Positions 1 through 54,319 of a stretch of DNA of 64,000 nt are shown piece after piece. A program made the position numbers and the translations under genes. Every line of letters starts with the position of its first letter. Positions within the stretch are counted from its first letter, which is position 1. Below the pieces are notes generated by a model. It was not told the DNA's origin. It made no database searches and was given only the letters and a program-made list of their open reading frames with translations. Origin of the DNA: an uncultured Bacteroidales bacterium (lineage in GTDB: Bacteria > Bacteroidota > Bacteroidia > Bacteroidales > F082); the NCBI GenBank assembly GCA_946185535.1, contig CAMHJX010000010.1, forward strand, positions 18,492 through 82,491. The letters are read 5' to 3'.

Positions 1-1997
1 GCCTGGCCGTTGGCATCGGTGTTGCCTTCCCAGTCGTCCCAGTTCTCCACGACTTCATCGAAGTCCTTGATCTTGTTTTGGCTCAAGGCGGCATTGGCCT
101 CGATGGTCAACCATTTGGTGGGACTCACGCCGGCTTGCAGCTCGACGCCCATGCGGTACGAGTCCTTGATATTGGTGGTAAGGGCCTCGCCGATGTCGCT
201 GACCGCGCCGGTCTGCACGAACTGGTTGGTGTAGTCCATATAATAAAAGTTGGCGCCTGCCTGCCAGATGCGTCCATTGTAGTTGTAGCCCAACTCATAG
301 TCGAGGAGTTGTTCGGGCTTGGGGAAGGGATAGGAGCCGTTGTCGGTGAAGTTGTTACGCTCGGGCTCGCGGTGGCTCATGGCCACGGAGGCATAGGCGT
401 GGTGGCTGTCCGTGTCGAAGGAGATGCCGCCCTTGGGGTTGAAGAAGGGGTACTTCTCGTGGATGTTGAGTTCCTGGTTGTAGTATTGGCTGTCTTCTTC
501 GTAGAACTTGTCATTGATGCCATTGGTTTTGTAGTCCACATAGCGGAACTGCATGTCGCCGAAGACGGTCCAGTGGTCGGCGAAGGTGTAGGCCGCTTTG
601 ACGAAGACGTTGCCGTCGAGCTTCTGTGCATCGGAGTCATAGTATTTGTAGTCGCCATCGGCGAGATATTTGTTAGCGACGTCTTGGTTGGCGATATAAT
701 TCACATAACCAAAGTGGTTGCCTTGGAAATTCTGGGCCGAGATACCGCCGATGACATTCCAGTTTGCATTCTTGTAACGGGTGAACCACACGAGGCCATA
801 GGTGTCTTGACGCAGTCCTTTCTTGCGGACAAAGTCAGTCTTTTTCACAGTGTTGCCGTCATTGTCTTTATAGGTCATGCCGAACTTCGAAAGCTTGTTG
901 TTGGGGCGGAACTCCTCGTAATAGCCGTAGCCGTAGGTGTAGTGCAGCGTGGCCGTGGTCGACCAGTGTTCGTTGATCTCCCAAGCGGCGGAGAGCAGGT
1001 TGTGGTCTTGCCAGAAGTTGTCGGTGGTGCGGTCCCAGAAGGTGCCGTCGTTCATCTGGTAGCGTTGAGTCATGTAATGGCCGTTTTCGTCCTGGACGAA
1101 GTTGCCGTCCTCATCGGTAACAAGGTATTCATAGAGCGAGTTGAACTGTCCCAAGCCCACCTTATACATATCGGCGTAGGTCTTGATGCCCGTGGGGATG
1201 CCGTAGGTGCCATCCATGAGGCTCATGTCGTTGTTGCCTGCCGTCACACCATTCCAGGCCTGGCCGGTCATCTCGAAGTTACCGATGTTCTTATAACGGA
1301 GGATGAAGTTCTTGCCCATCCAGGTAAGGCCACCGTAGTAGCTGCCGCTGCGGCCTTTGGTGCCATGGATGAAGCCGTTGGTGTGGGTCTCATGGTAGGC
1401 TCCGTCGATGATAAGGTGGTTCCACAACAAGCCCGTGGAGGCCTTGGCGCCGAAGTTGAGCGTGTTGAATGAGCCATAGGAGCCTGTGATCTCGGCACTC
1501 GGCACGAAGGAAGGTTTGGCCGATGTCAGGGATATCGTGCCGCCAAAGGCACCGTCGCCATTGGTGGAGCTACCCACGCCGCGTTGGATCTGCACCGAGC
1601 CGAGCAGCGAGCCGTAACTGTTCATGTTGGCCCAGAATACGCACTGGTCTTCGGGCGAATTGAGCGACACACCGTCGAGGGTGACATTGATACGCGAGTC
1701 GCCGGCGCCACGGATGCGCATGTATGAGGTGCCGGAGCCAATACCGTTCTCACCCCATGCGATGATGCCGGGTGTCTTGGCGAACAAGAAGGGGAGTTCC
1801 TGACCGGTTTTCGAAAAGTCGTTGAGTTCCACCTTCTCGATGTTGGTGACGGAAAAGGGGGCATTCTTTTGGAGGCGCACGCCGTTGATTATCACCTCAT
1901 CCAGGTTTTGAACATTAGTGGTGTCTAGGTTTTGTGCATGAAGGCTCATCGTCACGAAAGTGGCGAAAGCAAGAAAAATGATGTGTTTTTTGAGCAT
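1..1997 (-). CDS. TonB-dependent outer-membrane receptor, N-terminal ~665 codons (3' end lies beyond the left edge)
   Basis: My own reverse-complement translation from the ATG at 1997 gives MLKKHIIFLAFATFVTMSLHAQNLDTTNVQNLDEVIINGVRLQKNAPFSVTNIEKVELNDFSKTGQ..., i.e. a signal peptide plus plug-domain style N-terminus. A spot check further in (..GDGAFGGTISLTSAKPSFVP..) stays open. The 464-aa + strand ORF 78..1472 is its antisense shadow. A TPP riboswitch precedes it. Confidence 0.85.
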   Translation of the reverse strand, partial: MLKKHIIFLAFATFVTMSLHAQNLDTTNVQNLDEVIINGVRLQKNAPFSVTNIEKVELNDFSKTGQELPFLFAKTPGIIAWGENGIGSGTSYMRIRGAGDSRINVTLDGVSLNSPEDQCVFWANMNSYGSLLGSVQIQRGVGSSTNGDGAFGGTISLTSAKPSFVPSAEITGSYGSFNTLNFGAKASTGLLWNHLIIDGAYHETHTNGFIHGTKGRSGSYYGGLTWMGKNFILRYKNIGNFEMTGQAWNGVTAGNNDMSLMDGTYGIPTGIKTYADMYKVGLGQFNSLYEYLVTDEDGNFVQDENGHYMTQRYQMNDGTFWDRTTDNFWQDHNLLSAAWEINEHWSTTATLHYTYGYGYYEEFRPNNKLSKFGMTYKDNDGNTVKKTDFVRKKGLRQDTYGLVWFTRYKNANWNVIGGISAQNFQGNHFGYVNYIANQDVANKYLADGDYKYYDSDAQKLDGNVFVKAAYTFADHWTVFGDMQFRYVDYKTNGINDKFYEEDSQYYNQELNIHEKYPFFNPKGGISFDTDSHHAYASVAMSHREPERNNFTDNGSYPFPKPEQLLDYELGYNYNGRIWQAGANFYYMDYTNQFVQTGAVSDIGEALTTNIKDSYRMGVELQAGVSPTKWLTIEANAALSQNKIKDFDEVVENWDDWEGNTDANGQ

Positions 1998-2053
1998 AAC
2001 TCGTTGATTTAAAGATTAATAATTCAATAAATCAATAGAGGAATGATGAGGAA

Positions 2054-2157
2054 CTCGATTCCCTGTCTCGGCATTATCCGTATCAGGTGCAAAGGGTTTG
2101 ATCTCAGCCTGTCTTTCAATCCGCAAGCGGATAAGGCACCCCTATTGGTATCGGTGA
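2054..2157 (-). promoter_or_regulatory. TPP (THI-box) riboswitch in the 5' leader of the TonB-dependent receptor
   Basis: The reverse complement reads AUAGGGGUGCCUUAUCCGCUUGCGGAUUGAAAGACAGGCUGAGAUCAAACCCUUUGCACCUGAUACGGAUAAUGCCGAGACAGGGAAUCGAG. It has the invariant THI-box blocks GGGGUGC, GCUGAGA, ACCCUUUG.ACCUGAU, GGAUAAUGCC and AGGGA in canonical order. Confidence 0.85.
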
Positions 2158-2165
2158 CAAAAATA
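2158..2165 (-). promoter_or_regulatory. Bacteroidota -7 promoter box (TATTTTTG) for the riboswitch/receptor transcript
   Basis: Matches the TAnnTTTG consensus on the minus strand immediately upstream of the riboswitch 5' end. Confidence 0.5.
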
Positions 2166-2369
2166 CAGCTTTTTTTGATTACTTATTCAAAAATTTTTGC
2201 CTACTATGTCATTCCTAGCAGAGGTTATGTGCGGATGGAATCTATAGGAGGCAAAAATTATGTTGTAGTTGAAATAAAGCACTATGAATTGTTTGATGAA
2301 AATCCCTGCTGGCCATAGATTCCCGCCTACCCGCAAGCCTATGTTGGAATGACATAGCCAGCAAGGATT

Positions 2370-3461
2370 TTAAACCCCAACAAAATAACACAAATACCCG
2401 CAAACAGCCGCCACCAAGGCATTAACTATCTTTGCTTTCAAGAAACTCCTTTTGCTCTCGGCAAGCAGCGGCAGCGAGGCATGGCCGTCCTGCGAGATGG
2501 AGCTGGCTAGTAGCACAGAGAAAGGCACAGTACTCGTGGCAAACAAAGTGACGAACAGCAAATGCGGCCCCGATTCGGGGATGATGCCTACCAAGACGGC
2601 CAACAGGATCATCCATGGGATGTTGTTGCTGATAAGGGTTTCAATGTCAAAGTAATGCAGACCGACCTGGATGACAAACAAGGCGCCGAAGGTCCAGAGG
2701 AAGATGCTCAAGAAATGCTTGCGGATGATGTGCTCCCAAAGGTGTTCCTTGACGACATGCTCGGGTGCCGTGGCGATGAACCACACCACGAAGAGGCTCA
2801 CGATGGCGAAGATGAGGTTCATCCAATACTCGTCGAAGATGTTCAGCTGGGTGTGGACGGCTTCCTCGTGTTCATGTTCGTGTTCCAGCATGCCGAAAGC
2901 GAGGGCAGCGATGAACAGGATGACGCCAAGCAGCAGGGCGATACGCTCCGCACTGGCATGGCGCATGTTGCGGAATGATGCTTTCTCGGGTTGGTGCGTC
3001 TTATCATGGTGGTCTTCCTCATGAATCTGGTAGCCGTCTTCGCAGCCTTCATGTTGGGTTTTGTTGTTTGGCTTGGAGAATCTGTCCACCAGCCAGCCGG
3101 CAAGGATGGCAATGGCGAACAAGACCACCATCAGCAGCAAGGCCTCCTTGGGAATCATGGCAAGCATGATGAAGGCTTCATCGCCCGATGAGGCAATCAT
3201 CATGGCGATCAAGGCGCCGAAGCTCAACAGCTTATGCGAGTACATCGACACGGCGGCAAAACCGCCCATGCAGCCCGGGATGATGCCCAAGCCCGCACCC
3301 AAAACCACCTGTCCGAAGCGGCTATGGCGCAGACGCGAGAACCATTTCCCGTGGGAATGTATGTTGACATACTCGATCATCAGCATCATGATAATCACTA
3401 GGCCAGTGATTAAGACGCTGTTTCTCAGTACATCCAATGACAAATGCAAAAAGTCGTGCAT
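2370..3461 (-). CDS. Polytopic membrane permease of the ArsP_2 / 'putative manganese or heavy-metal transporter' type, with His-rich loops
   Basis: From the ATG at 3461: MHDFLHLSLDVLRNSVLITGLVIIMMLMIEYVNIHSHGKWF...GIIPGCMGGFAAVSMYSHKLLSFGALIAMMIASSGDEAFIMLAMIP. About 10 hydrophobic segments, plus central HEEDHHDKTH and EHEHEHEE loops. The track ORF (2370..3800) extends 113 codons upstream across the rimM promoter region, which I reject. Confidence 0.6.
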   Translation of the reverse strand: MHDFLHLSLDVLRNSVLITGLVIIMMLMIEYVNIHSHGKWFSRLRHSRFGQVVLGAGLGIIPGCMGGFAAVSMYSHKLLSFGALIAMMIASSGDEAFIMLAMIPKEALLLMVVLFAIAILAGWLVDRFSKPNNKTQHEGCEDGYQIHEEDHHDKTHQPEKASFRNMRHASAERIALLLGVILFIAALAFGMLEHEHEHEEAVHTQLNIFDEYWMNLIFAIVSLFVVWFIATAPEHVVKEHLWEHIIRKHFLSIFLWTFGALFVIQVGLHYFDIETLISNNIPWMILLAVLVGIIPESGPHLLFVTLFATSTVPFSVLLASSISQDGHASLPLLAESKRSFLKAKIVNALVAAVCGYLCYFVGV

Positions 3462-3496
3462 GATTTGAAAAATGAGCTGCAAAAATAAGAAATTCC

Positions 3497-3504
3497 TATA
3501 TTTG
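3497..3504 (+). promoter_or_regulatory. -7 promoter box TATATTTG upstream of rimM
   Basis: TAnnTTTG match. The ~170-nt leader that follows contains REP-like hairpins (ATTGCGGA..TCCGCAAT, GATGGCGGA..TCCGCCATGATG). Confidence 0.4.
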
Positions 3505-3683
3505 CAGCGAAAAAGAAAAAGGACTGGGATAACGAGACTTATCCTTTTAATCATCATTGCGGACTTGATCCGCAATCTCCTAAGCGGAAGGATTCGTTTT
3601 CTTGCTTGGGAGATGGCGGATGTCCCTCCGCCATGATGACTAGAGGAAGAATGTAGTTCTTCTCGGTCAGTTATCGGTGTAAT

Positions 3684-4208
3684 ATGAAAAAAGAAGACTG
3701 TTTTTACCTCGGCAAGATTGCCAAGACACACGGACTGAAAGGGGAGGTGACTCTTAAAGTGGAGGCCGATGATCCTTCCGCATACCTTGAGATGAAGCAT
3801 TTTTTCCTAGAAATCAATAAGGTGCTGACCCCTTTCTTCGTGGAGAAGATTACGATGAGCGGTGATAAATTCTTTATTGCTATTCAAGACATGAAGACTA
3901 TTGAGGCAGTGCAACATCTAGTCGGAAAGTCAGTGTATTTATCTTTGGAAATGTTGCCCAAGCTCAGCGGCAAGCAGTTCTATTTCCATGAGATTGTGGG
4001 CTTTACCGTGGTCGACACGGAGAAAGGCGAACTTGGACCCGTTAGTCAGGTGCTGGAATACCCCACGCAGGCCATCCTGCAGATAATGAAAGACAAAAAA
4101 GAAATCCTTATCCCGATTTTGGACCAGGTCATTCAAAATGTAGACAGAACTAAGAAAATACTTACGATTACGGCTCCTGAAGGGCTGATAGACATGTATT
4201 TGCAATGA
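3684..4208 (+). CDS. rimM: Ribosome maturation factor RimM
   Basis: 174 aa. N-terminus LGKIAKTHGLKGEVTLKV is typical of RimM, followed by a PRC-barrel-like C-terminus. Shares a 4-bp ATGA overlap with the next gene. Confidence 0.9.
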   Translation: MKKEDCFYLGKIAKTHGLKGEVTLKVEADDPSAYLEMKHFFLEINKVLTPFFVEKITMSGDKFFIAIQDMKTIEAVQHLVGKSVYLSLEMLPKLSGKQFYFHEIVGFTVVDTEKGELGPVSQVLEYPTQAILQIMKDKKEILIPILDQVIQNVDRTKKILTITAPEGLIDMYLQ

Positions 4209-4918
4209 CCGACGCGCGCCCATTTCATTTCAAGCATTTCAGCCTCTACCATCATCGCTCGACAATGAAGGTGGGCACCGATGCCATTTTGTTGGGACGC
4301 TGGACAGAGGTCAAGCCATTGGACATTGTGCTGGATATCGGCACGGGCTGCGGATTACTGCCGCTCATGCTCTCGCAAAAGGGAGTGGCGCATGTGGATG
4401 CCGTTGACATCGACAAAGCCTCCATCGAAGAGGCGACGATCAATTTCGAAGCCTCGCAGTGGCGTGAGCATCTTAAGGCCTATTGCATCGATATCGTTGA
4501 TTTCCAAAAGGAAAAGAGATATGACCTCATTGTTTCCAACCCACCGTTCTTCAACCGTTTTTCGAAATGCGACTCGGAGCGTAAGAGTCGTGCGCGGCAC
4601 AACGACGCGGGGCTATCGTTTGCCACGATATGCCAAGAGGTTGGTCGTTTGATGCAGCCTGATGGTCGTTTTGCATTGGTGTTGCCTGCTGATGTGTCAA
4701 TGGAGTTTCTTGATACTGCGGAGCGTTACGGGCTTTATCTTCACAAGAGGATGATCATCGTGCCGATAGCGGGGAAGGAGCCCAATCGCGTCAATCTGGA
4801 ACTGGGTTTTGGGAAATGCGATAGTGTTTTTGAGGAGACCTTTGTCATCCGCGATGCAGACAAGCGTTTCACGCCGCAATACAACGAATTTCTGAAGGAT
4901 TATTATTTAGGTCTATAA
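4205..4918 (+). CDS. tRNA1(Val) (adenine37-N6)-methyltransferase (YfiC/TrmN6 family)
   Basis: FKHFSL.HHRSTMKVGTDAILLG opening, SAM motif VLDIGTGCGLL and catalytic LIVSNPPFF motif. Confidence 0.8.
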   Translation: MTDARPFHFKHFSLYHHRSTMKVGTDAILLGRWTEVKPLDIVLDIGTGCGLLPLMLSQKGVAHVDAVDIDKASIEEATINFEASQWREHLKAYCIDIVDFQKEKRYDLIVSNPPFFNRFSKCDSERKSRARHNDAGLSFATICQEVGRLMQPDGRFALVLPADVSMEFLDTAERYGLYLHKRMIIVPIAGKEPNRVNLELGFGKCDSVFEETFVIRDADKRFTPQYNEFLKDYYLGL

Positions 4919-4955
4919 CCCTCTCTAAACTCTACACTCTAAACTCTACACTAAA
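4919..4955. repeat. Short tandem repeat (CTCTAAACTCTACA-type) between convergent genes
   Basis: cctctctaaactctacactctaaactctacactaaac. This is the complement of the TTTAGAG family seen at 42081-42215. Confidence 0.7.
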
Positions 4956-5819
4956 CTATTGTCCCTTTTTCGAGGCCTCTTTGTTTGCCTTGGCTCGATG
5001 CTCATTAAACATATACACCACCCTCAGAGTGATGCTGTTGTTGTACTGGCGTTGCAGGGGTTGCACTCGCGAGTCGTCGGTTTTCAGGAGGGTTTCGTTG
5101 GTGTCTTTGTAGAACAGGCGTGTACGAATGGGCATCAGCGAGTATTGGTAGCGCAATTCAGCATGGATGCCTTCCCAGATGCGGACTCGGGCATCGGCGC
5201 AAATGCAGAAATCGTTGCCTCGATAGCTGTCGGAGTTGGCAATCACTTGTGGAACCAGCTCTTCGATGGCTGCGTCTTGCGGATAGCCCGCCGTATAAAG
5301 CATTTTGGTCAATTCCTTGATGTTGGTTGCTTGGCTGACATCGGGGAGGCCTTCTCTGTCCTCTCTCCAATGGATTTGTCCGTCACCCAAACGGATGGAC
5401 GAGGATTGTCCGTTGATGTATTCTTGGAGTCCGACAATGCGCCCGTATGACACGCCGACGCCGAGGCTATAGCGATCCTTGTCGGTCACATAGATCATCA
5501 CTGGGATTTCGGCATAGTTGAGGTTCAGTTTATAACGCCCCGAATACAGTCCAAGATGGGGGTTGATGGAATCGCCCTTGTAGGCACCTTTTTGGTTGAA
5601 AAGCACCTCAAGGCCGACATCCAACCAGTTGGTGATGGGGATTAAGGCACCGGCACCGACATGGACGCCCGGCTTGCGGTAATGGTAGCATTCGTCGCCG
5701 TCCACTTGGCAAATATTGCCGCCCAAGATCAGTTCGCCTTTGACGATTTGGGCATGGAGCAGGGCAGGAGCGGCCAAAGTGAAGGCCAACAGTAGGGTAA
5801 CTATTCTTAATCTCTTCAT
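4956..5819 (-). CDS. Outer-membrane beta-barrel protein (porin/PorT-like family)
   Basis: Signal peptide MKRLRIVTLLLAFTLAAPALLHAQ, alternating beta-strand pattern and an aromatic C-terminal strand region (ITLRVVYMF). It has its own TATTTTTG box at 5877-5884 (minus). Confidence 0.6.
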   Translation of the reverse strand: MKRLRIVTLLLAFTLAAPALLHAQIVKGELILGGNICQVDGDECYHYRKPGVHVGAGALIPITNWLDVGLEVLFNQKGAYKGDSINPHLGLYSGRYKLNLNYAEIPVMIYVTDKDRYSLGVGVSYGRIVGLQEYINGQSSSIRLGDGQIHWREDREGLPDVSQATNIKELTKMLYTAGYPQDAAIEELVPQVIANSDSYRGNDFCICADARVRIWEGIHAELRYQYSLMPIRTRLFYKDTNETLLKTDDSRVQPLQRQYNNSITLRVVYMFNEHRAKANKEASKKGQ

Positions 5820-5876
5820 TATTGTTCGATTTCTAGGATTAACTGATTTGTGGCGTTTTTATTGCGAAACCGGCTG

Positions 5877-5884
5877 CAAAAATA
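5877..5884 (-). promoter_or_regulatory. -7 box TATTTTTG for the beta-barrel gene
   Basis: The minus strand reads TGTATTTTTGCAG, 58 nt upstream of the ATG at 5819. Confidence 0.45.
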
Positions 5885-5889
5885 CAAAA

Positions 5890-8304
5890 TCATCGTTGAT
5901 TCAAAATTTGTCCCGATACGCTGTATCGTTTTCCGTCCTTGATGATGACGATGTGTCCGTCTTCGATCACTTTCTGGACAGAAGGCTCTTGGCTTTCCTG
6001 GTTGCCGTTTTCATCAATGCCAAAGTCCGTCTTCACGATGGTGTCGGACCAAATGATTTCCGACTCGACACCGTTGGCGTACACTTCGCTGATGCCGAAA
6101 CGGTATTCTCCAGCTTGAGCCTCATTCCAGGTGTAGTCGATATAGGATGTGCTGGTGACTTCATCTGCCAGCATTAGGCTGTTCCCTTCGCTGTCGGCAC
6201 GATAGATTCGATAGCCCATGATTTGTTCCAGACGGCTCTTGATTTCATAAATGCGAATGGAGAAGCCAATGGCAATAAACATGGCATCTTTGCCATCGTA
6301 TTTCCCAATGTGGGCTCCAACTCCGTAGGTGTAATCCCAGCCTGGATCCATCAAAGGACGGTCCAAGATAATGTTGTTGGTGATGTCATAATCGTAAACT
6401 CCAGTTTCACCTGACAGCAATAAGTGAGGGGTCCCGTCTTTTGCGGTGAAGTAGCCTGAGCCATAGATGGGTTCTGGTGCTGTTGGACTGAACATGATTC
6501 TTTGTCCTTGACGGTCATAAAGGATTGCTTCCTTATTATGGTCAATCCAAAAGCCGTCATATTCAGGGTCGTAGGTCGTTGCCCCGAACCAAATGCCCAT
6601 ATCTATGCTGTCGTTGACAGTTTTGTTGTAAAGGTCTATACTATATAAAACACTGAGTCCTGAACGTACACAATTACTATAAAAGTAAGTCCCATCGTAA
6701 GCAATGCCTAAAGTTTCCGGGACGCCTTCCACATTGAACTTTTCGAGCAATTCTCCATCCATGGTGTATTTTCCGTATGAGAAAGGAGGGTTGTCCCAAT
6801 ATGCGTAGTTGACATAGATGTGTTCGCCGTCGGTGGCCACGCCGCCACATTCCTCATTACTGTCAATTTCCTTGAGGAGGCTCCACTCTGTATCAGCTTT
6901 GCTCCATGAAAGGCTTACACTAGTGCTATTCGGGTTGTTCGCCTCGGGTGAATAACTTGCCGTGATTTGACCAACTGGAAAACCGGAGAAGTAAGCCTCA
7001 ATGTCGAGGATGTCTTCTTCCACGCTAAGGGTTATGGATGGTATGTTGGATATGGTTTCCCCGTTTCTCTTCCAACAATAAAACTGGTAGCCTTCTGCCG
7101 GAATTGCTGTCAAAGTGCATGAATCACCAATATGGTATTCGCCATTGCCATTGATAGCGCCTGCTGTTGATGGATAGGCTGTGGCTTCCACAGCCCAAGG
7201 TTCATATTCTGGATTGATGTCGAGGATGGCGAAGTTTTTTTCGTTAAAGCTATATCCGATCGGATTCAGATGTCCCAAGGCGAAATAGCCGTTGGCGCGA
7301 CCCCATCCCCAATTAAAGTGTAGCAAGTCGTTGCCGTCGTAGCCGTCACAAACGAAGGCATGGCTGCCTTGGCTGCCTTTACCTCCATAGAATACGGGTC
7401 GTTGTAAGTCAAGACAGGCCTTCAGCATCGAAATCCATTCTTCGTCGCTGAAATCACTTCGCTTTTCGATATGGAGCCGTCTTGAATAATTGAAGTAGCG
7501 TATCAATGCATCGGGCACATCTCCTGAATCAGCACCAGAACCGTTGGTGGTATATTGCATGTCAACGGAAACGCCGCAATGGAACAGTAAGGTTGCCACC
7601 GCCTCAACTTCAATGTCGCTGGAATTGTCGGTCAGCGAATCGGGCATGTGATCCCAGTCGTAGACGGTGTTGCCGAAATCAGCGGAAAGTGTGAGGCCCG
7701 CATTGAAATAGGAATGCGACCCCCAGCCAGTTTCCGGATAGCGCCAATAGTGCATAATCTGACCCATGGCCACGGCTACGCAGCCCACTTCGGCATGGCC
7801 ACACGGGACTTTTGAAAAGGTGGGGCAGAGTTCGTTGTAATGGCATCCCTGCTCCCACATTTCGGTCAGCAGGGGCTCAACGGCTGTGGCAGTCTTGCTT
7901 TCGTTGAGCCGCCCAGTGTTCTTCACTAGTTCCCATTGCCTTGCCGTGAGTTCATCCGCTTCAAGATGGTTTTCGATGCCATATTGTATCCTTGCGACGA
8001 AGTCCTGCAAATAGGCCTCCATTTGCACGGGAACGGTGTTCGGGCCGAAACGGCCTTCAAGGGAATAGCCGATGATGGGTGTTTCGCAATCGTCGGCCGA
8101 AACGATGACGAAGCCGTCGTCGGTATTGAAGACATAGAATGCAGACCCACTCTTGTCTGTTCGATAAGTGGAGACTAGTTGCACATCGCTTGCTCCCATG
8201 AACTTGACGGCGATGGATTGCGCTGTTTGCAGGTCGATGGGGCGGGCAGCAGTGCTTAAAAACAACCCGAAAAAGGCGATGCAGAGAAGGGAGATGCGTT
8301 TCAT
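5890..8304 (-). CDS. Secreted C10-family (SpeB/interpain-type) cysteine protease, paralog 1 (variable domain type A)
   Basis: The ATG at 8304 gives MKRISLLCIAFFGLFLSTAARP (the track ORF starts at an upstream TTG, 8337). Spi-type propeptide (FYVFNTDDGFVIVSADD..PIIGYS). Catalytic Cys context GHAEVGCVAVAMGQIMHYW and His context GSHAFVCDGYD..HFNWGWG. Ig-like and Fn3-like modules. C-terminal SVQKVIEDGHIVIIKDGKRYSVSGQ motif. Confidence 0.85.
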   Translation of the reverse strand: MKRISLLCIAFFGLFLSTAARPIDLQTAQSIAVKFMGASDVQLVSTYRTDKSGSAFYVFNTDDGFVIVSADDCETPIIGYSLEGRFGPNTVPVQMEAYLQDFVARIQYGIENHLEADELTARQWELVKNTGRLNESKTATAVEPLLTEMWEQGCHYNELCPTFSKVPCGHAEVGCVAVAMGQIMHYWRYPETGWGSHSYFNAGLTLSADFGNTVYDWDHMPDSLTDNSSDIEVEAVATLLFHCGVSVDMQYTTNGSGADSGDVPDALIRYFNYSRRLHIEKRSDFSDEEWISMLKACLDLQRPVFYGGKGSQGSHAFVCDGYDGNDLLHFNWGWGRANGYFALGHLNPIGYSFNEKNFAILDINPEYEPWAVEATAYPSTAGAINGNGEYHIGDSCTLTAIPAEGYQFYCWKRNGETISNIPSITLSVEEDILDIEAYFSGFPVGQITASYSPEANNPNSTSVSLSWSKADTEWSLLKEIDSNEECGGVATDGEHIYVNYAYWDNPPFSYGKYTMDGELLEKFNVEGVPETLGIAYDGTYFYSNCVRSGLSVLYSIDLYNKTVNDSIDMGIWFGATTYDPEYDGFWIDHNKEAILYDRQGQRIMFSPTAPEPIYGSGYFTAKDGTPHLLLSGETGVYDYDITNNIILDRPLMDPGWDYTYGVGAHIGKYDGKDAMFIAIGFSIRIYEIKSRLEQIMGYRIYRADSEGNSLMLADEVTSTSYIDYTWNEAQAGEYRFGISEVYANGVESEIIWSDTIVKTDFGIDENGNQESQEPSVQKVIEDGHIVIIKDGKRYSVSGQILNQR

Positions 8305-8333
8305 ATTTTTTTTTGTTTTTATTATTATCGTTT

Positions 8334-18240: not shown

Positions 18241-20376
18241 TTACAATTTCATTGTCAAACTAATCCTATTCCTGTTCACATCGACCTCAAGTACTTTCAC
18301 GCGAACCTTTTGGTTCAAATGTACCACTTCGTTCGGGTCTTTGATGTAATGGTCAGCCATCTGGCTGATGTGGACGAGGCCGTCCTGATGCACGCCAATG
18401 TCGACGAAGGCACCGAAGGCGGTGATGTTGGTCACGATGCCATTGAGGACCATGCCTGCGCGCAAGTCCTTGACTTCGCGGATGTTCTTGTCGAATTCAA
18501 AGGCCTCAAAACTTTTGCGCGGGTCGCGGCCAGGTTTGTCGAGTTCGCTGAGGATGTCGTTGATGGTCTCCAAGCCGAAATGCTCTTCTACAAACTCTTC
18601 GGGCTTGATTCTAGCGATGAGTTCCTTGTTGCCGATGAGGTCTTTCACTTTCACGCCCAGTTTCTTGGCCATTTTCTCCACGATGTGGTAGCTCTCGGGG
18701 TGGACGGCACTCTGGTCCAAGGGGTTGTCGCCGTTATGGATGCGCAGGAAGCCGGCACATTGTTCGAAGGCCTTTTCGCCGAGGCGCGGCACGCCATAGA
18801 GTTGTTGGCGCGTCTTGAAGCCACCGATTTCGTCGCGGTAGTGGACGATGTTGTAGGCCAGTGTGGGACCTACGCCGCTCACATACGACAGCAGCTGTTG
18901 GCTGGCCGTGTTGAGTTCCACGCCGACGGCGTTCACGCAACTCTCCACCGTCTGGTCGAGGCTCTCGCCGAGTTTTTTCTGGTCTACATCGTGCTGATAT
19001 TGTCCCACGCCGATGCTCTTTGGGTCGATTTTCACCAACTCGGCCAGAGGGTCCATCAGTCGGCGCCCGATGCTGACCGCGCCGCGCACGGTGATGTCGT
19101 AGTCGGGGAACTCGTCGCGGGCGATCTTGGAGGCGGAATACACCGACGCGCCGCTCTCGCTCACCATCACGGCCATCAGGTCGCGGTCGAATTTGATGCT
19201 GCGGATGAAATCTTCGGTCTCGCGTCCCGCCGTGCCGTTGCCGATGGCGATGACCTTAATGCGGTAGGCATCCACGAGGCTCTTGATTTTGCGCATCGCG
19301 CCCACTGTGTCAGACTTGGGCGGGTGGGGGTAGATGGTTTCGTTGTGGAGTAATGCGCCTGTTTCGCTCAAGACCACCACCTTGCAACCTGTGCGGAAAC
19401 CCGGGTCAATGGCGAGGATGCGCTTCTGGCCCATCGGGGCGGCGAGGAGCAGTTGTTTGAGGTTCTCGGCGAAGACACGGATGGCGGTCTCGTCGGCTTT
19501 CTCCTTATAATAATTACGGATTTCGGTCTCAATGGAAGGTTCCAAGAGGCGTTTCCACGAGTCGGCGATGGCCTCGCGTACGAGTTCCGATGATTCGTTG
19601 TCGTTCTTCAGGAAGATGCTCTCCAAAGAGTTCAGCACGAAGTCGTCATCGACTTTGATTTTCAGTTTCACCATGCCTTCTTCCTCTGCGCGGAACAGGG
19701 CTAAAAGGCGATGCGAGGGCGCCTCGGAAATCGGCTCGCGGAAGTCGAAATACTGCTGGTAGGTCTTGCCTTCCTCTTCCTTGCCTTTGACCACGGCGGA
19801 GCTGATGTCGCCCTGCATGTGGAAGATCTTACGGATGCGGTTGCGTCCATTGATATTTTCCGAGACCCACTCGGCCATGATGTCCTTGGCACCTTGCAGG
19901 GCTTCCTCGATGTCGTTGACACCCTTGCCTGCGTTGACATAGCGTGCAGCGAGGCGGTCCACGAAGTCTACATTCTGCGCCATGATTTGTGCGGCCAGAG
20001 GCTCCAAACCTTTCTCGCGGGCGATGGCGGCGCGGGTGCGGCGTTTAGGCTTGTAGGGCAAATACAAATCCTCAACTTCTTGCAAGGTCTTGGCGTTCAG
20101 TATCTTTTGTTCCAGTTCGGGCGTGAGTTTCTCCTGCTCACGGATGGAGGCAATGACGCTTTCTTTGCGTTTTTGCAGTTCGGTGAGTTGTTCGAGGCGT
20201 TTCTGAACAGCGGCCACATTCTCTTCATTCATAGTGCCTGTCATTTCCTTGCGGTAGCGGGCGATGAAGGGAATGGTGGCACCTTCGTCGAAGAGGCGAA
20301 TGACATTGGCAACATGGTGCGCGGCGAGGTTGAGTTCCTGTGCGATTTGAGTGCTGAAATCTATCGAGTTTGGCAT
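18241..20376 (-). CDS. tex: Tex-like transcription accessory protein (S1 RNA-binding domain protein)
   Basis: 711 aa. N-terminus IAQELNL..HVANVIRLFDEGATIPFIARYRKE.TG, YqgF/RuvX-like and HhH regions, and a C-terminal S1 domain (GMVLNGIVTNITAFGAFVDIGVHQDGLVHISQM). Confidence 0.9.
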   Translation of the reverse strand: MPNSIDFSTQIAQELNLAAHHVANVIRLFDEGATIPFIARYRKEMTGTMNEENVAAVQKRLEQLTELQKRKESVIASIREQEKLTPELEQKILNAKTLQEVEDLYLPYKPKRRTRAAIAREKGLEPLAAQIMAQNVDFVDRLAARYVNAGKGVNDIEEALQGAKDIMAEWVSENINGRNRIRKIFHMQGDISSAVVKGKEEEGKTYQQYFDFREPISEAPSHRLLALFRAEEEGMVKLKIKVDDDFVLNSLESIFLKNDNESSELVREAIADSWKRLLEPSIETEIRNYYKEKADETAIRVFAENLKQLLLAAPMGQKRILAIDPGFRTGCKVVVLSETGALLHNETIYPHPPKSDTVGAMRKIKSLVDAYRIKVIAIGNGTAGRETEDFIRSIKFDRDLMAVMVSESGASVYSASKIARDEFPDYDITVRGAVSIGRRLMDPLAELVKIDPKSIGVGQYQHDVDQKKLGESLDQTVESCVNAVGVELNTASQQLLSYVSGVGPTLAYNIVHYRDEIGGFKTRQQLYGVPRLGEKAFEQCAGFLRIHNGDNPLDQSAVHPESYHIVEKMAKKLGVKVKDLIGNKELIARIKPEEFVEEHFGLETINDILSELDKPGRDPRKSFEAFEFDKNIREVKDLRAGMVLNGIVTNITAFGAFVDIGVHQDGLVHISQMADHYIKDPNEVVHLNQKVRVKVLEVDVNRNRISLTMKL

Positions 20377-24260: not shown

Positions 24261-26831
24261 CTATCTGACGACCACCTTTTTGGTCAAGGTGCCCTCTTTT
24301 CCAGTAACCACGAAGAAATAAATCCCTTTTGCGCGTCTTTTCATACTGTACTCCAATTCTTTGGTGCATGAGGCGTTAAAGGTTTGTATAACATCAATCA
24401 AACCTCCCATCATATCATACACTTTGACCACAACTTTACCCTCCATGTCTTCAAAACGTAGTTCCATTTCTCCATTGTTGGGGTTGGGAATGATATCGAA
24501 GGTGCTCCTTGGATCATCCTGTTCGTTGATGCCATAGAATGATGGTATAAGCCAATAACGCACTATATTTTCCTCTTTTGAACAAGGGCTCACCGCTTTG
24601 AAGGTAAGCCAAACGGTATCCTCCCCCCAATCCATCGGATACAAGATGCAAGTGCGATTGTCGTCGGAAGGGACGATGCGCCAGCTCGGTTTTGAAATGC
24701 TCCATTCGCATAGGCTGTCAATCCACGTGAAATCGGAAAGAGAGTCGATAGCTTGGAAGGTATAGCATTTCACATTGAACTCTGTCGCTGTGATAGGATA
24801 ATGCGGTGACTCGATGGTTGGCGTGATGCACTCCAAAACTGGATTAGGTTCGTAATTCACGGTAAGGTTCAAATCAATAATGCTATCACAGCCATCTCTA
24901 GTCAGACCTTCATACTGATAATGACCTGACTCCGTAAGATAGCCATCTGGGGCTGCCTTCCACGGATACCTGTCGCACACCGTTTCCACCAAGCTAGCTT
25001 CAAAACCTTTCTTGATGGTAAGGTCTAGTATATAGATATCGTCGCATCCAATAGAATCGGTAATAGTGTCGTAATAAACACCATCATGGAAGTACTCATG
25101 ATTACGCCATGTGAACGAGTTTTCACATGTTTTCACTCTTTCAGTTGGATGGATTCGCTCATGATCTATCGTAAGATGCAGCGTAATTGTACTGTCGCAG
25201 CCAAGAGCCGTTTGTGACGAATACGCGTAATCACCCGATTCCGTATAGGTGGCACCGTGCCAGGTGAACGCGTTGCATGCGACTGCCGTTGTGTCACCTT
25301 GGAAATCATGGCCAAGGGTAAGGTGTAGCACAAAGGTGCTGTCACAAGTTCCGGGTTCTTGAATAATATTTACGTATGTGCCGCTATTCGTAAAGTTGGT
25401 TCCACGCCAATGGTAGTTGTTGCATGCTGTTACAATTTCCTCTGAATTATAGCTTCCACTGATGACAAGGTTCAAGAGCAAAAGGCTGTCGCATCCATCA
25501 ATGCTCTGCGCCAGATGGGTGTATACTCCAGATTCGGTGTAGGTCGTGTTATACCATTCGTATTCATTACAAGCCGTGGCCTCAAGGTAAATCGTGTCAA
25601 TAGGGTTGATGGTCAGGTGAAGTATCAAAGTGCTGTCGCAGGTTCCAGGTGTATGGACAATCTGGGTGTATGTGCCGCTTTCAGTATAAGTATTCCCTCG
25701 CCAATCATAGCTGTCGCATGCAGTTGCATACTCTTCTGAAATCAAGGTCCTGACATTTATCGTTTTGGTAAGATAGAGCGAATCCATTGTTCTGTGAGGG
25801 TTATGAAGCACATTGGTTACAGTGTAGAAACCGTCAGTGGTATAAGTGTGGGTAACTTGTTCGCCTTGCGCAGAAGTGCCATCGCCAAAATACCATGTCA
25901 CGTCATCATAGTGCCAGTTGGTTTCCGTATTGAATTCCAAGGCTTGATTGGTGCAGAAATAATGGTCTTCAGGGATTTCCGAATAATCCCAGCCGTCAAT
26001 TGTCATGGTGTAATTGAAGTTGGTAGAAAAACTATGTGCCTTAAGGAAAACGCCTGAATCAGCAAACTCGTCACCTACGTCACAAATGGCCATTTTGATA
26101 TGGTAATTCGACATGGGAACCACATTGAAACTTACTTCGATCAAGGTTGTGAAACCGTCAAATTGAATGGTAGAGCCTCCTGTGTTGTCGATGTAATACG
26201 CTGAATTGTGGTTGAGGTTCACATTGTCGATGCTGACGACATCTGTCGTTCCAGGTATCAAGGCCATGTTCTGATGGTCGTAATATCCGCCGGCTGGATT
26301 GATTCCTTCCACAAAAAAGCCAAATACATCGTTGTAATCCCCGCCGACCCATTCCATATATTCTTCAGAGCCGAACACAAAACTGAAAGTCAATGTATTA
26401 TCCCAAGGGATAAAATCAAACTCAAGCACTGCGACATTTTGTGTTGTTCCAGAGGCAATAGAGGCTAAATCATCATCGTAATACGCGTCACATGTTGAAG
26501 GAACCATTGTTTCATCTGAGTCGTTTGGGCCGACAGCGACACTCACTCCTCCAGTAGCCAGGATGAGACCAGACTCCATACCGATGTTGGTAGGTGTACT
26601 ACCTGTCTCGAACTTACCAATGAGGTTGCAATAAATGATTCTTTCGGAACCGTTGAATTTGGCATTGGATATGGTGACGCCATTGTCCAATAGGATGTTT
26701 CTGACCAATGAATCCGCTGTCCAGCCATTCAGGTCTGAGGCTTCTGTCACAATAAGTTGGGCGTGCAGTTTCCCTGAAAATAGAAAGCCCAGTAGTATGG
26801 TAATCAGGAATAGTGTTCTTTTTCTTTTCAT
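24261..26831 (-). CDS. Large secreted T9SS cargo protein: choice-of-anchor-L-like N-domain, PKD domain, six Cys-containing ~49-aa repeats, type A T9SS C-terminal domain
   Basis: Signal peptide. N-domain LVRNILLDNGVTISNAKFNG...GLILATGG...FDFIPWDNTLTFSFVFGSEEY. PKD-like VTWYFGDGTSAQGEQVTHTYT. Repeats of the form C..Y.W.G..Y.ESG.Y......GCDS...L.LT. C-terminus FDIIPNPNNGEMELRF...KGIYFFVVTGKEGTLTKKVVVR. Confidence 0.8.
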   Translation of the reverse strand: MKRKRTLFLITILLGFLFSGKLHAQLIVTEASDLNGWTADSLVRNILLDNGVTISNAKFNGSERIIYCNLIGKFETGSTPTNIGMESGLILATGGVSVAVGPNDSDETMVPSTCDAYYDDDLASIASGTTQNVAVLEFDFIPWDNTLTFSFVFGSEEYMEWVGGDYNDVFGFFVEGINPAGGYYDHQNMALIPGTTDVVSIDNVNLNHNSAYYIDNTGGSTIQFDGFTTLIEVSFNVVPMSNYHIKMAICDVGDEFADSGVFLKAHSFSTNFNYTMTIDGWDYSEIPEDHYFCTNQALEFNTETNWHYDDVTWYFGDGTSAQGEQVTHTYTTDGFYTVTNVLHNPHRTMDSLYLTKTINVRTLISEEYATACDSYDWRGNTYTESGTYTQIVHTPGTCDSTLILHLTINPIDTIYLEATACNEYEWYNTTYTESGVYTHLAQSIDGCDSLLLLNLVISGSYNSEEIVTACNNYHWRGTNFTNSGTYVNIIQEPGTCDSTFVLHLTLGHDFQGDTTAVACNAFTWHGATYTESGDYAYSSQTALGCDSTITLHLTIDHERIHPTERVKTCENSFTWRNHEYFHDGVYYDTITDSIGCDDIYILDLTIKKGFEASLVETVCDRYPWKAAPDGYLTESGHYQYEGLTRDGCDSIIDLNLTVNYEPNPVLECITPTIESPHYPITATEFNVKCYTFQAIDSLSDFTWIDSLCEWSISKPSWRIVPSDDNRTCILYPMDWGEDTVWLTFKAVSPCSKEENIVRYWLIPSFYGINEQDDPRSTFDIIPNPNNGEMELRFEDMEGKVVVKVYDMMGGLIDVIQTFNASCTKELEYSMKRRAKGIYFFVVTGKEGTLTKKVVVR

Positions 26832-44728: not shown

Positions 44729-44768
44729 CCTCCCCATGAGCTGTTTGGCTTGTGGGGAGGATTTTTTA
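44729..44768 (+). terminator. Intrinsic terminator
   Basis: CCTCCCCA-N16-TGGGGAGG followed by ATTTTTTATT. Confidence 0.6.
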
Positions 44769-44809
44769 TTCACTTTATAACGTATTGTGGAGTTTGCTTT
44801 GTTTTTTTA

Positions 44810-44817
44810 TATCTTTG
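44810..44817 (+). promoter_or_regulatory. -7 box TATCTTTG for the type I R-M / defence operon
   Basis: TAnnTTTG match 31 nt upstream of the hsdM ATG at 44848. Confidence 0.5.
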
Positions 44818-44847
44818 CAGTTCAAACATCTATTTATAATAGAAACA

Positions 44848-48026: not shown

Positions 48027-48038
48027 AACCGAGGAAAT

Positions 48039-50159: not shown

Positions 50160-50170
50160 ACCACTTAGCT

Positions 50171-53179: not shown

Positions 53180-53230
53180 CCAATTAAACAATGATTACAA
53201 CAGTAATTATCTAATCAAAAATAAATACTC

Positions 53231-53773: not shown

Positions 53774-53797
53774 AAACACTCTAGATAATCAATAGCA

Positions 53798-54310: not shown

Positions 54311-54319
54311 GTTAGATTT

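Follow-up and report, generated by a model that had tools for sequence, protein, structure and literature searches.

Why would an uncultured, rumen-type Bacteroidales bacterium keep five protease genes of a single family side by side, each extended by several hundred codons of non-catalytic sequence, and in what respect do the copies differ? Protein breakdown in the rumen limits the nitrogen efficiency of livestock, and the enzymes of its dominant uncultured Bacteroidales are poorly known. In the window (the whole stretch of 64,000 nucleotides that was analysed), five such genes lie on the minus strand. We read them, with a probability of about 0.7, as a recombining tandem array of five secreted C10 zymogens that would be co-transcribed, targeted by interchangeable propellers and addressed by a common C-terminal tail. 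Tandem arrays of C10 genes are already known; new here are a propeller apparently nested in a fibronectin-III (Fn3) domain, the mosaic structure of the array and a widespread tail that is not modelled in Pfam-A or NCBIfam. The locus offers a testable model in which one C10 chemistry is combined with interchangeable propellers in a recombining array that occupies a fixed site with 1–5 copies across species.

Organization of the array

The original prediction described five minus-strand genes of ~800 codons with intergenic distances of 24–29 nt, and both the open reading frames and an independent repeat search agreed with it. All five ORFs are intact, encode 802–814 aa and are arranged head-to-tail with gaps of 24, 27, 26 and 29 nt (g1 to g5, Table 1), and the repeat search returned five copies with start-to-start spacings of 2474, 2453, 2436 and 2454 nt (Tandem Repeats Finder is blind to the 2.45-kb period of the array). 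Translation of g4 and g5 likely begins at the conserved ATG (MKRISLL...) rather than at the upstream TTG given in the ORF list. Rfam and tRNA scans found nothing within the array.

Table 1. Positions of the array genes, their parts, the shared tracts and the neighbouring genes in the window
Feature	Position	Strand	Remarks
-7 box TATTTTTG	18151..18158	-	Bacteroidetes-type TAnnTTTG; precedes the start codon (ATG) of g1 by 29 nt
Tex	18241..20376	-	S1-domain RNA-binding protein; conserved boundary gene upstream of the array
g1	15692..18121	-	809 aa; type 1 propeller, to which no propeller of the fetched loci is related at >50%
g1 signal peptide MKRTIILCIAFFGLLLSTAAR	18059..18121	-	putative; signal-peptidase-I type without lipobox, from sequence
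g1 Inhibitor_I69 (Spi-like) prodomain	17813..18064	-	aa 20–103, Pfam
g1 Peptidase_C10 catalytic domain	17099..17674	-	aa 150–341; Cys175 codon 17597–17599, His315 codon 17177–17179
g1 Flg_new_2 (InlB B-repeat-like)	16805..16999	-	aa 375–439, Pfam
g1 Fn3, N-terminal part (...SVSLSW)	16715..16792	-	aa 444–469; putative strands A and B, from the model and the spliced fn3 match
g1 variable domain	16016..16714	-	aa 470–702; modelled beta-propeller of five blades; the DG-x-hydrophobic blade motif occurs five times
g1 Fn3, C-terminal part (GYRIYR ... GVYCFGISEVY)	15827..16015	-	aa 703–765; putative strands C to G
g1 tail SVQKVIEDGHIVIIKDGKRYNVSGQHLN	15695..15778	-	aa 782–809; acidic linker ahead of the tail has pLDDT <50
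g1–g2 spacer	15668..15691	-	24 nt, A-rich, conserved among all four spacers
g2	13259..15667	-	802 aa; architecture as g1; propeller DNA identical to g5
g3	10805..13231	-	808 aa; architecture as g1; propeller type 3
g4	8334..10778	-	814 aa from the conserved ATG; architecture as g1; propeller type 4
g5	5890..8304	-	804 aa from the conserved ATG; architecture as g1; propeller type 5; ends ...GQILNQR
Other spacers	13232–13258, 10779–10804, 8305–8333	-	same conserved A-rich type
730-bp tract, g1/g2	16752..17481; g2 copy 14298–15027	-	identical; C-terminal part of catalytic domain plus Flg_new_2
894-bp tract, g5/g2	6031..6924; g2 copy 13394–14287	-	identical; covers the whole propeller
389-bp tract, g5/g4	7211..7599; g4 copy 9685–10073	-	exact match
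282-bp tract, g5/g1	g5 7778–8059; g1 17595–17876	-	exact match
OMP beta-barrel gene	4956..5819	-	287 aa; conserved downstream boundary; own TAnnTTTG box (5877–5884); outside the repeat

Between positions 5800 and 18400, the minus strand contains three TAnnTTTG sites: one upstream of g1 (18151–18158), one after g5 and ahead of the next gene (5877–5884) and one deep within g4 (8874–8881). A search of the four spacers found none, and the first site is therefore the sole intergenic TAnnTTTG ahead of any array gene, as had been proposed. This motif is a weak marker, since the entire window shows no enrichment of it (43 sites found against 36 expected). Terminator-like hairpins were likewise not found in the array spacers. 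One -7 box, A-rich spacers of 24–29 nt and spacers free of such hairpins fit the 'operon-like' layout originally suggested; motif and spacing are consistent with co-transcription of g1–g5, in which case a single promoter upstream of g1 would serve all five genes.

The array occupies a fixed chromosomal position between Tex and the OMP beta-barrel gene, and the order Tex-[C10]n-OMP barrel recurs in ~20 rumen Bacteroidales species. A comparison of copy number in related genomes, which had been recommended together with the prediction, gave 1–4 copies at the same locus in these relatives versus five here. The main differences between the copies lie in a single domain, and the description of the array as expanded and specialised is thus upheld.

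Clustered C10 genes have been described in B. thetaiotaomicron (btpB-btiB-btpC-btiZ-btpZ) and B. fragilis (Bfp1-4), with co-transcription reported (PMC3462683, PMC2873492). As in the present array, paralogous SpeB-like C10 genes with leader and propeptide are clustered head-to-tail on a Bacteroidales chromosome. However, the Btp/Bfp loci comprise three clustered genes with interleaved genes for staphostatin-like inhibitors, and their products are predicted lipoproteins, whereas the array has five genes whose products lack a lipobox and carry a ~440-aa extension that comprises an apparently nested propeller and the tail. We found no staphostatin-like inhibitor genes at the array: the gaps of 24–29 nt leave no room for them, the flanks are Tex and the OMP barrel, and no small lipocalin-like ORF is present.

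Protease head and propeller extension

To assign the proteins, the HMM searches suggested by the original prediction were run on all five sequences. Every product matched Inhibitor_I69 at aa 20–103 (60–68 bits, cut-off 25), Peptidase_C10 at aa 150–341 (E 5e-61 to 6e-63; 207–213 bits, cut-off 26; full profile 1–194) and Flg_new_2 at aa 375–439. The segment that had been called an Ig-like module therefore scores instead as an InlB B-repeat. An NCBIfam search with the five full-length proteins gave no match at E <= 0.01. The sequences GCVAVAMGQIMHYW (containing Cys175), SHAFVCDGYD (containing His315) and NWGW are identical across the five copies. Cys175 (GCVAVA) aligns with interpain GCVATA, a position that is Ala in the 3bb7 sequence, and His315 (SHAFV) aligns with interpain GHAFV; NWGW is conserved, and the alignment with 3bba (interpain A), which pairs both residues with its catalytic dyad, has an E-value of 1.4e-44. 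In phmmer comparisons with interpain A and SpeB structures (E 1e-44 to 1e-31), Cys, His and NWGW were aligned. Prodomain plus catalytic domain of interpain A and SpeB (3bba, 3bb7, 1dki) align with aa 37–355 (E 1e-44 to 1e-36); homology stops at ~aa 365, and the C-terminal half has no PDB sequence match. Family, prodomain and catalytic dyad, all named at the outset, thus hold up both in the HMM searches and in the alignments with solved structures. Since interpain A and SpeB share the catalytic Cys, His and NWGW with the five products, an autoactivating zymogen is the expected mechanism.

The five leaders follow the pattern MKR(T/I)..LCIAFFGL.LST(A/I)A(R/H)P, in which the sole Cys is at position 8, within the hydrophobic core; reading the five leaders for a lipobox ([ASG]-C) revealed none. 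We conclude that each gene encodes a predicted secreted papain-fold cysteine-protease zymogen of family C10, of the SpeB/interpain A kind and with predicted activity. Such zymogens would be exported by Sec and then activated by removal of the prodomain.

Beyond this head, each product carries a C-terminal extension of ~440 aa, so that the order is signal peptide, Spi-like prodomain, catalytic domain, InlB B-repeat-like domain, propeller, disordered acidic linker and tail. Structure prediction with AF2, also proposed with the original prediction, gave a model of aa 366–809 with a pLDDT of 88.1 and a pTM of 0.78, and of aa 470–702 with a pLDDT of 89.2 and a pTM of 0.88. The variable domain of the C10 copies is modelled as a five-bladed beta-propeller: Foldseek matched it with a probability of 1.0 to YVTN, WD40, NHL and YncE propellers (TM-scores 0.5–0.6), and DSSP assigned 19 strands, which together with five DG-x-hydrophobic motifs suggest five blades. 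Since the closest structures reach a TM-score of only ~0.5–0.6 at 10–14% identity, the fold tells nothing specific about function.

The variable domain had been predicted to lie between two Fn3-like modules. These two flanking modules are best read as halves of one. DSSP places two strands before the propeller and five after it, and when the propeller was spliced out of g1, Pfam fn3 matched across the junction with an E-value of 9e-4 and 19.8 bits, below the cut-off of 25. The same splice in g4 gave no Pfam fn3 match, nor did the C-terminal Fn3 part alone match Pfam. Strand order and the sub-threshold match (19.8 bits versus 25) thus suggest a single fibronectin-III domain with the propeller inserted into its B-C loop. 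The propeller may direct the head to a different target or substrate in each copy; the same proteolytic chemistry would then be steered to another substrate or surface ligand by each propeller, widening the range of protein targets.

Alternatively, the proteins might be primarily adhesins, in which propeller, Fn3, Flg_new_2 and tail bind surfaces while the head serves mainly self-processing or maturation, as in gingipain-adhesin complexes. A protease-less paralog (P0018, from a cluster of 16 members) opens a related array and, behind its own signal peptide, retains the complete C-terminal module of Flg_new_2, propeller and tail; moreover, the Flg_new_2 and BspA-type domains that accompany the tail are characteristic of surface adhesins. 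However, conservation within the proteins is strongest in the head (omega 0.07–0.23 among the paralogs), and dyad and prodomain are intact in all five genes as well as in those intact, full-length relatives that were read. This combination argues for a selected proteolytic function, and we consider a primarily adhesive role unlikely compared with that of propeller-targeted proteases. The gingipains and HagA of P. gingivalis combine cysteine proteases with binding modules and share near-identical, recombining DNA segments among paralogs. The array shares with them the union of protease and non-catalytic modules as well as the recombining segments, but gingipains belong to family C25 and not C10, carry Cleaved_Adhesin repeats and not an Fn3-nested propeller, and are encoded by dispersed rather than tandem genes.

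Mosaic evolution of the five copies

Synonymous divergence between the paralogs depends on the part compared, with dS of 0.16–0.69 for heads, 0.03–0.9 for tails and 1.6 to saturation for propellers. Tracts of identical DNA, 282–894 bp long, link copies to one another within heads and within tails and propeller (Table 1). The five genes have propellers of four types, and three of these types are found again in sister genomes: the g3 propeller is 97% identical to L001_2, that of g4 is 84–89% identical to L001_3, L002_1 and L003_2, and that of g5 is 97% identical to L001_4, so that the order g3-g4-g5 corresponds to L001_2-_3-_4 in one sister genome. Between the window and this genome, propeller dS is 0.04–0.07 whereas the heads attached to the same propeller type differ by 0.24–0.63, showing that heads were reshuffled after the two genomes diverged. 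Omega of the orthologous propellers is 0.2–0.4, and averaged dN/dS on the propellers gave no sign of positive or diversifying selection. Across the family, 83 propellers form 38 types at 70% identity. As read from these alignments, the array grew through tandem duplication of a 2.45-kb unit and is still recombining, heads and tail-plus-spacer are exchanged patchwise among copies, and the propellers are old, distinct types under purifying selection that are common to sister genomes. Common head and tail may act as homology arms through which a single protease chemistry is moved among ~40 or more ancient propeller modules, the putative targeting units.

An array of near-identical repeats raises the concern that five copies, or the chimeric-looking g2, result from mis-assembly of fewer repeats. 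Indeed, g2 resembles the head of g1 joined to the propeller of g5, with identity to g1 ending 10 alignment columns before identity to g5 begins, and in MAG assemblies of relatives the arrays break or are frameshifted (L003 copies 1 and 2, L019 copies 2 and 3, and a fusion in P0001). On the other hand, all five ORFs are intact and g2 is unique at both ends, its first 640 nt being 82–94% and its last 150 nt 82–91% identical to the other copies. In addition, three propeller types occur in the same order in the independently assembled sister genome, and arrays of 2–4 copies are found at the same locus in many independent assemblies. We regard an artefact as highly improbable.

The same features could also reflect programmed surface variation, in which the cassette array changes the exposed propeller by recombination and thereby escapes phage, protozoa or host antibody instead of widening the substrate range. 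Conserved, recombination-prone flanks (head on one side, tail plus spacer on the other) bracket a very divergent propeller cassette; conversion tracts are perfectly identical, and one propeller was copied recently from g5 to g2. The diversity of propeller types across the family and the heads reshuffled between sister genomes would be in keeping with such a system. Against it, every copy is a complete gene that has a start codon, a signal peptide and catalytic residues of its own, and no silent or truncated donor cassettes were found in the window. Upstream of g1 there are only weak inverted-repeat pairs of 11–13 nt, none of the invertible-promoter type, and no recombinase was found among the part of the window ORFs scanned with Pfam. 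Since propeller types are also kept across species under purifying selection, programmed variation appears improbable, and we favour an array in which recombination redistributes heads and tails among long-lived propellers.

A shared C-terminal tail

The short conserved C-terminal motif noted at the outset was recovered in all five products as a tail of ~26 aa with the consensus vqKvIENGQlvIIRDGVRYNvxGqxl. It is not private to the C10 family, since it ends hundreds of unrelated signal-peptide proteins in Bacteroidales of gut and rumen. A tail profile retrieved 234 cluster representatives at E <= 1e-3, and in 141 of 145 re-scored matches the tail ended within 6 residues of the protein C-terminus. 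Among long tail carriers, 51 of 60 had signal-peptide-like N-termini and none of the 60 a lipobox. Carriers include proteins with Big_2, BspA LRR, CBM26 and F5/8-C domains as well as M4, S8 and C10 peptidases, and are by prediction typical extracellular proteins. Pfam and NCBIfam models did not match the tail, a word-indexed homology search with the 45-aa tail gave 6 fragments only and was uninformative, and no description of the tail was found in the literature searched on the motif strings, on new CTD classes or on conserved Bacteroidales C-terminal motifs.

Interpain A and Muribaculaceae SpeB homologues (PMC4936053) carry a C-terminal domain (CTD) of T9SS type A, which the five array products, unlike interpain A, do not have. 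Three types of T9SS CTD are distinguished: A (PF18962/TIGR04183), B (PF13585/TIGR04131) and C (cl41395) (review PMC10202324). The T9SS CTD models suggested by the original prediction did not match any of the five proteins: for Por_Secre_tail (PF18962/TIGR04183), a Pfam search of the C-terminal region and tail at E <= 10 returned noise only and NCBIfam nothing, and the sole match to the type B CTD (CHU_C/TIGR04131) was spurious (E 3.7, within the propeller). The idea of a truncated T9SS CTD was rejected as well, since a profile of 142 tail sequences, compared by hhalign with nine type A CTDs, gave a probability of 0.9%. Tail and T9SS CTDs nevertheless share their setting, as both stand at the very end of Bacteroidota enzymes and adhesins that are extracellular, have a Sec signal and are not lipoproteins, although the tail has ~26 residues in three short strands whereas a T9SS CTD is an Ig-like sandwich of 70–100 residues. 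In one related array (L163), the two are interchangeable on paralogous bodies: a T9SS type A CTD closes the first paralog at precisely the point at which the adjacent paralog carries the tail.

The gene neighbourhoods of 119 tail-bearing loci contained no enriched machinery gene, only SusC, SusD and GH genes of the PUL type, each at no more than 11 loci. The OMP barrel downstream of the array was considered as a dedicated partner of the tail and rejected because it occurs only at the array locus and is absent beside other tail-bearing genes. Since the tail has no detectable CTD similarity and no enriched machinery, its role is approached through its position, its cargo and the one CTD swap, which together suggest a sorting or anchoring tag. 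The zymogens would then be carried to the cell surface or into the medium, with the tail serving to address or anchor them. Our broader proposal, that gut and rumen Bacteroidales use the tail as a widespread, hitherto unrecognised signal for secretion or surface anchoring in place of the T9SS CTD, and that the array is a recombining cassette system, is tentative. Should the tail prove to direct sorting or anchoring, the secretomes of these bacteria would be predicted better, because predictors of T9SS CTDs and of lipoproteins now miss tail proteins; if it is an address label, the question follows which machinery reads it. Por_Secre_tail itself is present in homologue P0012 (38 bits), and the genome from which the window derives also encodes a Por_Secre_tail protein.

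Five C10 zymogen genes in one array

The five minus-strand genes of the array (g1 to g5, g1 being promoter-proximal) were recovered by ORF scan as frames of 802–824 aa within positions 5890–18121, with gene starts set at a conserved ATG (MKRISLL...). They are separated by gaps of 24, 27, 26 and 29 nt, each with a conserved A-rich spacer, and an independent repeat search returned five in-register copies at spacings of 2474, 2453, 2436 and 2454 nt, which bears out the original prediction of five head-to-tail genes 24–29 nt apart. That prediction also placed the sole recognisable TAnnTTTG box upstream of g1, and indeed none of the four spacers carries the motif on the minus strand; of three such sites in the array region, the others lie 3' of g5 and inside g4. 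Since TAnnTTTG is not enriched window-wide (43 observed versus 36 expected), it is only a weak promoter marker. No terminator-like hairpin was found in any of the four spacers, and g1–g5 may be co-transcribed from one promoter.

Features of the array and of the surrounding window
Feature	Position	Strand	Remark
g1	15692-18121	-	conserved ATG start
g2	13259-15667	-	conserved ATG start
g3	10805-13231	-	conserved ATG start
g4	8334-10778	-	conserved ATG start
g5	5890-8304	-	conserved ATG start
TAnnTTTG box	18151-18158	-	29 nt before g1 ATG
TAnnTTTG box	8874-8881	-	deep within g4
TAnnTTTG box	5877-5884	-	past g5, ahead of next gene
Tail of g1	15695-15778	-	equivalents in other array genes
Exact tract g1/g2	16752-17481 = 14298-15027		730 bp
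Exact tract g2/g5	13394-14287 = 6031-6924		894 bp
Exact tract g4/g5			389 bp
Exact tract g1/g5			282 bp
OMP beta-barrel gene	4956-5819	-	287 aa
Tandem repeat CTCTAAACTCTACA	4923-4957		14 nt, about 2.1-2.5 copies
PKD protein gene	24261-26831	-	856 aa
TPP riboswitch RF00059	2043-2153	-	56.3 bits, barely above gathering score (54.3)
ORF	78-1472	+	464 aa
Defence island	44752-55603	+	HsdM, HsdS, HsdR

All five proteins match the Pfam models Inhibitor_I69 (aa 20–103, 60–68 bits), Peptidase_C10 (aa 150–341, 207–213 bits, full profile) and Flg_new_2 (aa 375–439, 31–38 bits); no NCBIfam model matches them. The top PDB sequence matches are interpain A (3bba, E 1.4e-44) and its zymogen 3bb7, aligned across aa 52–354, and SpeB sequences follow at E about 1e-37. 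In these alignments GCVAVA corresponds to GCVATA of interpain (the position being Ala in the 3bb7 sequence), SHAFV pairs with GHAFV of interpain A, and NWGW is conserved; all five proteins share Cys175, His315 and NWGW. Judged by sequence, the catalytic part belongs clearly to the interpain/SpeB kind of family C10, as had been predicted together with the Spi-type propeptide and the catalytic Cys/His pair. The leader, MKR..LCIAFFGL.LST.A with cleavage after the final A, reads as a signal-peptidase-I type without a lipobox. The products would be exported by Sec, and the zymogens would be activated through prodomain loss. The closest published gene arrangements are btpB-btiB-btpC-btiZ-btpZ of B. 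thetaiotaomicron and the bfp/bfi loci of B. fragilis, in which three clustered C10 lipoproteins are interleaved with staphostatin-like inhibitor genes (PMC3462683); in contrast, the window array has neither inhibitor genes nor lipoprotein signals.

Mosaic structure and the conserved locus

Measured in 50-aa windows, protein identity among g1–g5 is 76–100% as far as aa 400 or so, 28–57% across the variable propeller domain (where g2 and g5, however, are identical) and 83–97% over the last 30 residues. Paralog dS (Nei-Gojobori) is 0.16–0.69 in the prodomain plus catalytic region (the head, omega 0.07–0.23) and 0.03–0.9 in the C-terminal tail, whereas in the propeller it runs from 1.6 to saturation, indicating a difference of age or exchange and not of constraint alone. 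Four gene pairs share exact DNA tracts; given flanking identity near 0.88–0.9, the calculated chance of even the shortest is about 1e-13. Because both ends of g2 are unique, it is most likely a genuine fifth gene into which tracts resembling g1 and g5 were recently copied by conversion. With these unique ends, intact ORFs and a gene order conserved across assemblies, the array as a whole is unlikely to be an assembly artefact.

With each species represented by one genome, some 26 MAGs of uncultured Bacteroidales from rumen or gut (RUG, RGIG, Ca. Limimorpha) contained full-length relatives, the closest to g1 at 77% identity. The locus is syntenic, in the order HAD, Tex, [C10]n, OMP beta-barrel, methyltransferase, RimM, ArsP_2. 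The copy-number comparison proposed earlier gave one to four copies at this locus in relatives versus five in the window: one in eight species (e.g. L008, L011, L012, L016, L018, L020), two in L004, L006, L009, L010, L013 and L023, three in L007 and L019, and four in L001 and L003, all lower bounds, with several arrays at contig ends or frameshifted (copies 1 and 2 of L003, 2 and 3 of L019). The frameshifts in several MAGs fall near aa 190 (L003 5264–9970; L019 7895–12287), and in P0001, a called protein, part of a propeller is joined to the middle of a protease head. Such copies are pseudogenes or recombinants, or else the repeats were misassembled.

The g3 propeller is 97% identical to that of the second L001 copy (L001_2). 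The type shared by g5 and g2 is 97% identical to L001_4 and 90–92% to L002_2, L004_1, L005_1 and L006_1, and that of g4 is 84–89% identical to L001_3, L002_1 and L003_2, so that g3-g4-g5 repeat the order L001_2-_3-_4. Among the fetched loci nothing exceeds 50% identity to the g1 type; P0005, a metagenome fragment of 265 aa, matches the g1 query at 93% identity over the part it covers. In all, 83 family propellers form 38 clusters at 70% identity. Flanking DNA is about 93–95% identical to L001 and L003 (about 93% to L001 for window positions 1–5889), which makes these genomes sister species. Compared with L001, the window propellers show low dS (0.04–0.07, omega 0.2–0.3) but heads joined to the same propeller type differ at dS 0.24–0.63; heads have thus been exchanged among paralogs since the genomes diverged, while propeller types stayed stable and constrained. 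Programmed surface variation is a possible reading of such an array, but every copy is a complete gene, no invertible promoter was seen, no recombinase occurs among the window ORFs scanned with Pfam, and propeller types are conserved under purifying selection. We conclude that the five C10 zymogen genes, all intact, sit at a conserved locus as a tandem array that undergoes recombination; g1–g5 have head and tail in common and carry four propeller types.

The g3 and g5 propellers are more alike than the flanks when compared with L001_2 and L001_4, and the cassettes look younger, or more recently swapped between lineages, than their surroundings. The OMP beta-barrel gene lies always directly downstream of the array (about 20 species) and evolves faster than its housekeeping neighbours (54–99% amino acid identity versus 86–98% for Tex); it showed no association with other tail-bearing genes. 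A short tandem repeat separates it from the methyltransferase gene.

Architecture of the C-terminal half

AlphaFold2, run on a 32-sequence alignment, gave a confident all-beta model for g1 aa 366–809 (pLDDT 88.1, pTM 0.78), and Foldseek against the PDB returned beta-propellers (1l0q, a YVTN propeller plus PKD, then WD40, NHL and Lp49). For aa 470–702 modelled alone (pLDDT 89.2, pTM 0.88), propellers were the sole structural matches (probability 1.0, TM-scores 0.5–0.6, 10–14% identity). Its 19 strands, grouped 4+4+4+4+3, and five conserved DG-x-hydrophobic motifs (TDGEYIY, TDGDYFY, NDGFWL, KDGSPHLL, YDGKDALF) indicate a predicted five-bladed propeller. In the larger model two strands precede it (QITASYSPE, SVSLSW) and five follow (GYRIYR ... 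GVYCFGISEVY ...), an order of A-B, then C-C'-E-F-G, which is that of a single Fn3. With the propeller removed, the g1 sequence matches the Pfam fn3 model (E 9e-4) over the splice junction; neither the C-terminal Fn3 piece alone nor a spliced g4 construct matches it. From strand order and the spliced-construct match we infer one Fn3 with the propeller nested in its B-C loop. Fn3-like strands do flank the variable domain, as originally predicted, but the two predicted modules are better read as one split Fn3. Beyond it lie an acidic linker (pLDDT below 50) and the tail, three short strands at pLDDT about 84. No solved structure was matched by sequence for this architecture (Flg_new_2, Fn3 with propeller, tail), which so far has come to light only in 48 database clusters from rumen or gut. 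The propellers may each direct their enzyme to a substrate or ligand of its own.

The C-terminal tail and its carriers

In the genome loci fetched, every full-length member that extends to its C-terminus closes with ...VQKV(I/F)E(D/N)G.I.IIK(D/N)GKRY.(V/I).GQ.LN. Against 1.84 billion cluster representatives, the tail profile matched 234 proteins at E <= 1e-3, and in 141 of 145 re-scored matches it lay at most 6 residues from the C-terminus. From 233 non-redundant tails the consensus vqKvIENGQlvIIRDGVRYNvxGqxl(K)-COOH emerges, its frequencies biased because the tails were gathered partly with a pattern of that shape. Carriers span 36 to 1548 aa; among 60 long ones, 51 have signal-peptide-like N-termini and none a lipobox. 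With binding modules (Big_2, BspA-type LRR, Flg_new, CBM26, F5/8 type C, Cleaved_Adhesin, beta-helix proteins) and peptidases of families M4, S8 and C10, they are typical extracellular proteins. A DNA-pattern scan gave at least 120 matches, among those listed mostly in Paludibacteraceae and unclassified Bacteroidales MAGs of rumen and gut, also in some Muribaculaceae and Bacteroidaceae, with several loci per genome. Hundreds of unrelated signal-peptide-bearing carriers occur among the database proteins P0055–P0199 and the loci L042–L160. No dedicated neighbour gene was found beside tail-bearing genes.

The T9SS CTD model check suggested with the original prediction gave no Pfam or NCBIfam match to the tail, and hhalign found no similarity to type A CTDs (probability 0.9%). 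A T9SS review gives CTD types A, B and C alone, placing type B motifs within the final 100 residues and the type C signal of ChiA at 100 aa (PMC10202324). No published description turned up in the literature searched for the motif, and the tail could prove an element new in kind; it would act as an address or anchoring label. At locus L163 (875–5850), the first array gene after Tex, split by an assembly frameshift, ends with a Por_Secre_tail CTD (38 bits) directly after the ...GVNEDN linker of its paralogs, and the adjacent next paralog ends in the short tail: as read from these sequences, paralogous bodies with one C-terminal module directly exchanged for the other. The window itself encodes a PKD protein with a canonical Por_Secre_tail CTD, so T9SS cargo and tail cargo coexist in this genome.

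At locus L161 (7621–9063), the first array gene after Tex encodes P0018, a protease-less protein of 480 aa with its own signal peptide, Flg_new_2, propeller and tail; a full C10 paralog starts 9 nt after it. A relative, P0023, heads a 16-member cluster, and the protease-less form measures 480–484 aa. Such a paralog supports an adhesin-first function of the array proteins, which the strong constraint on an intact catalytic head opposes.

Elsewhere in the window, the TPP riboswitch would control a gene nearer the start of the window, possibly on the minus strand; the plus-strand ORF there has no Pfam match and may be spurious. The defence island encodes a type I restriction-modification system with a GmrSD-family nuclease gene between HsdS and HsdR; an AbiH-like gene comes next, where GC content is low (0.365 at 54–56 kb).
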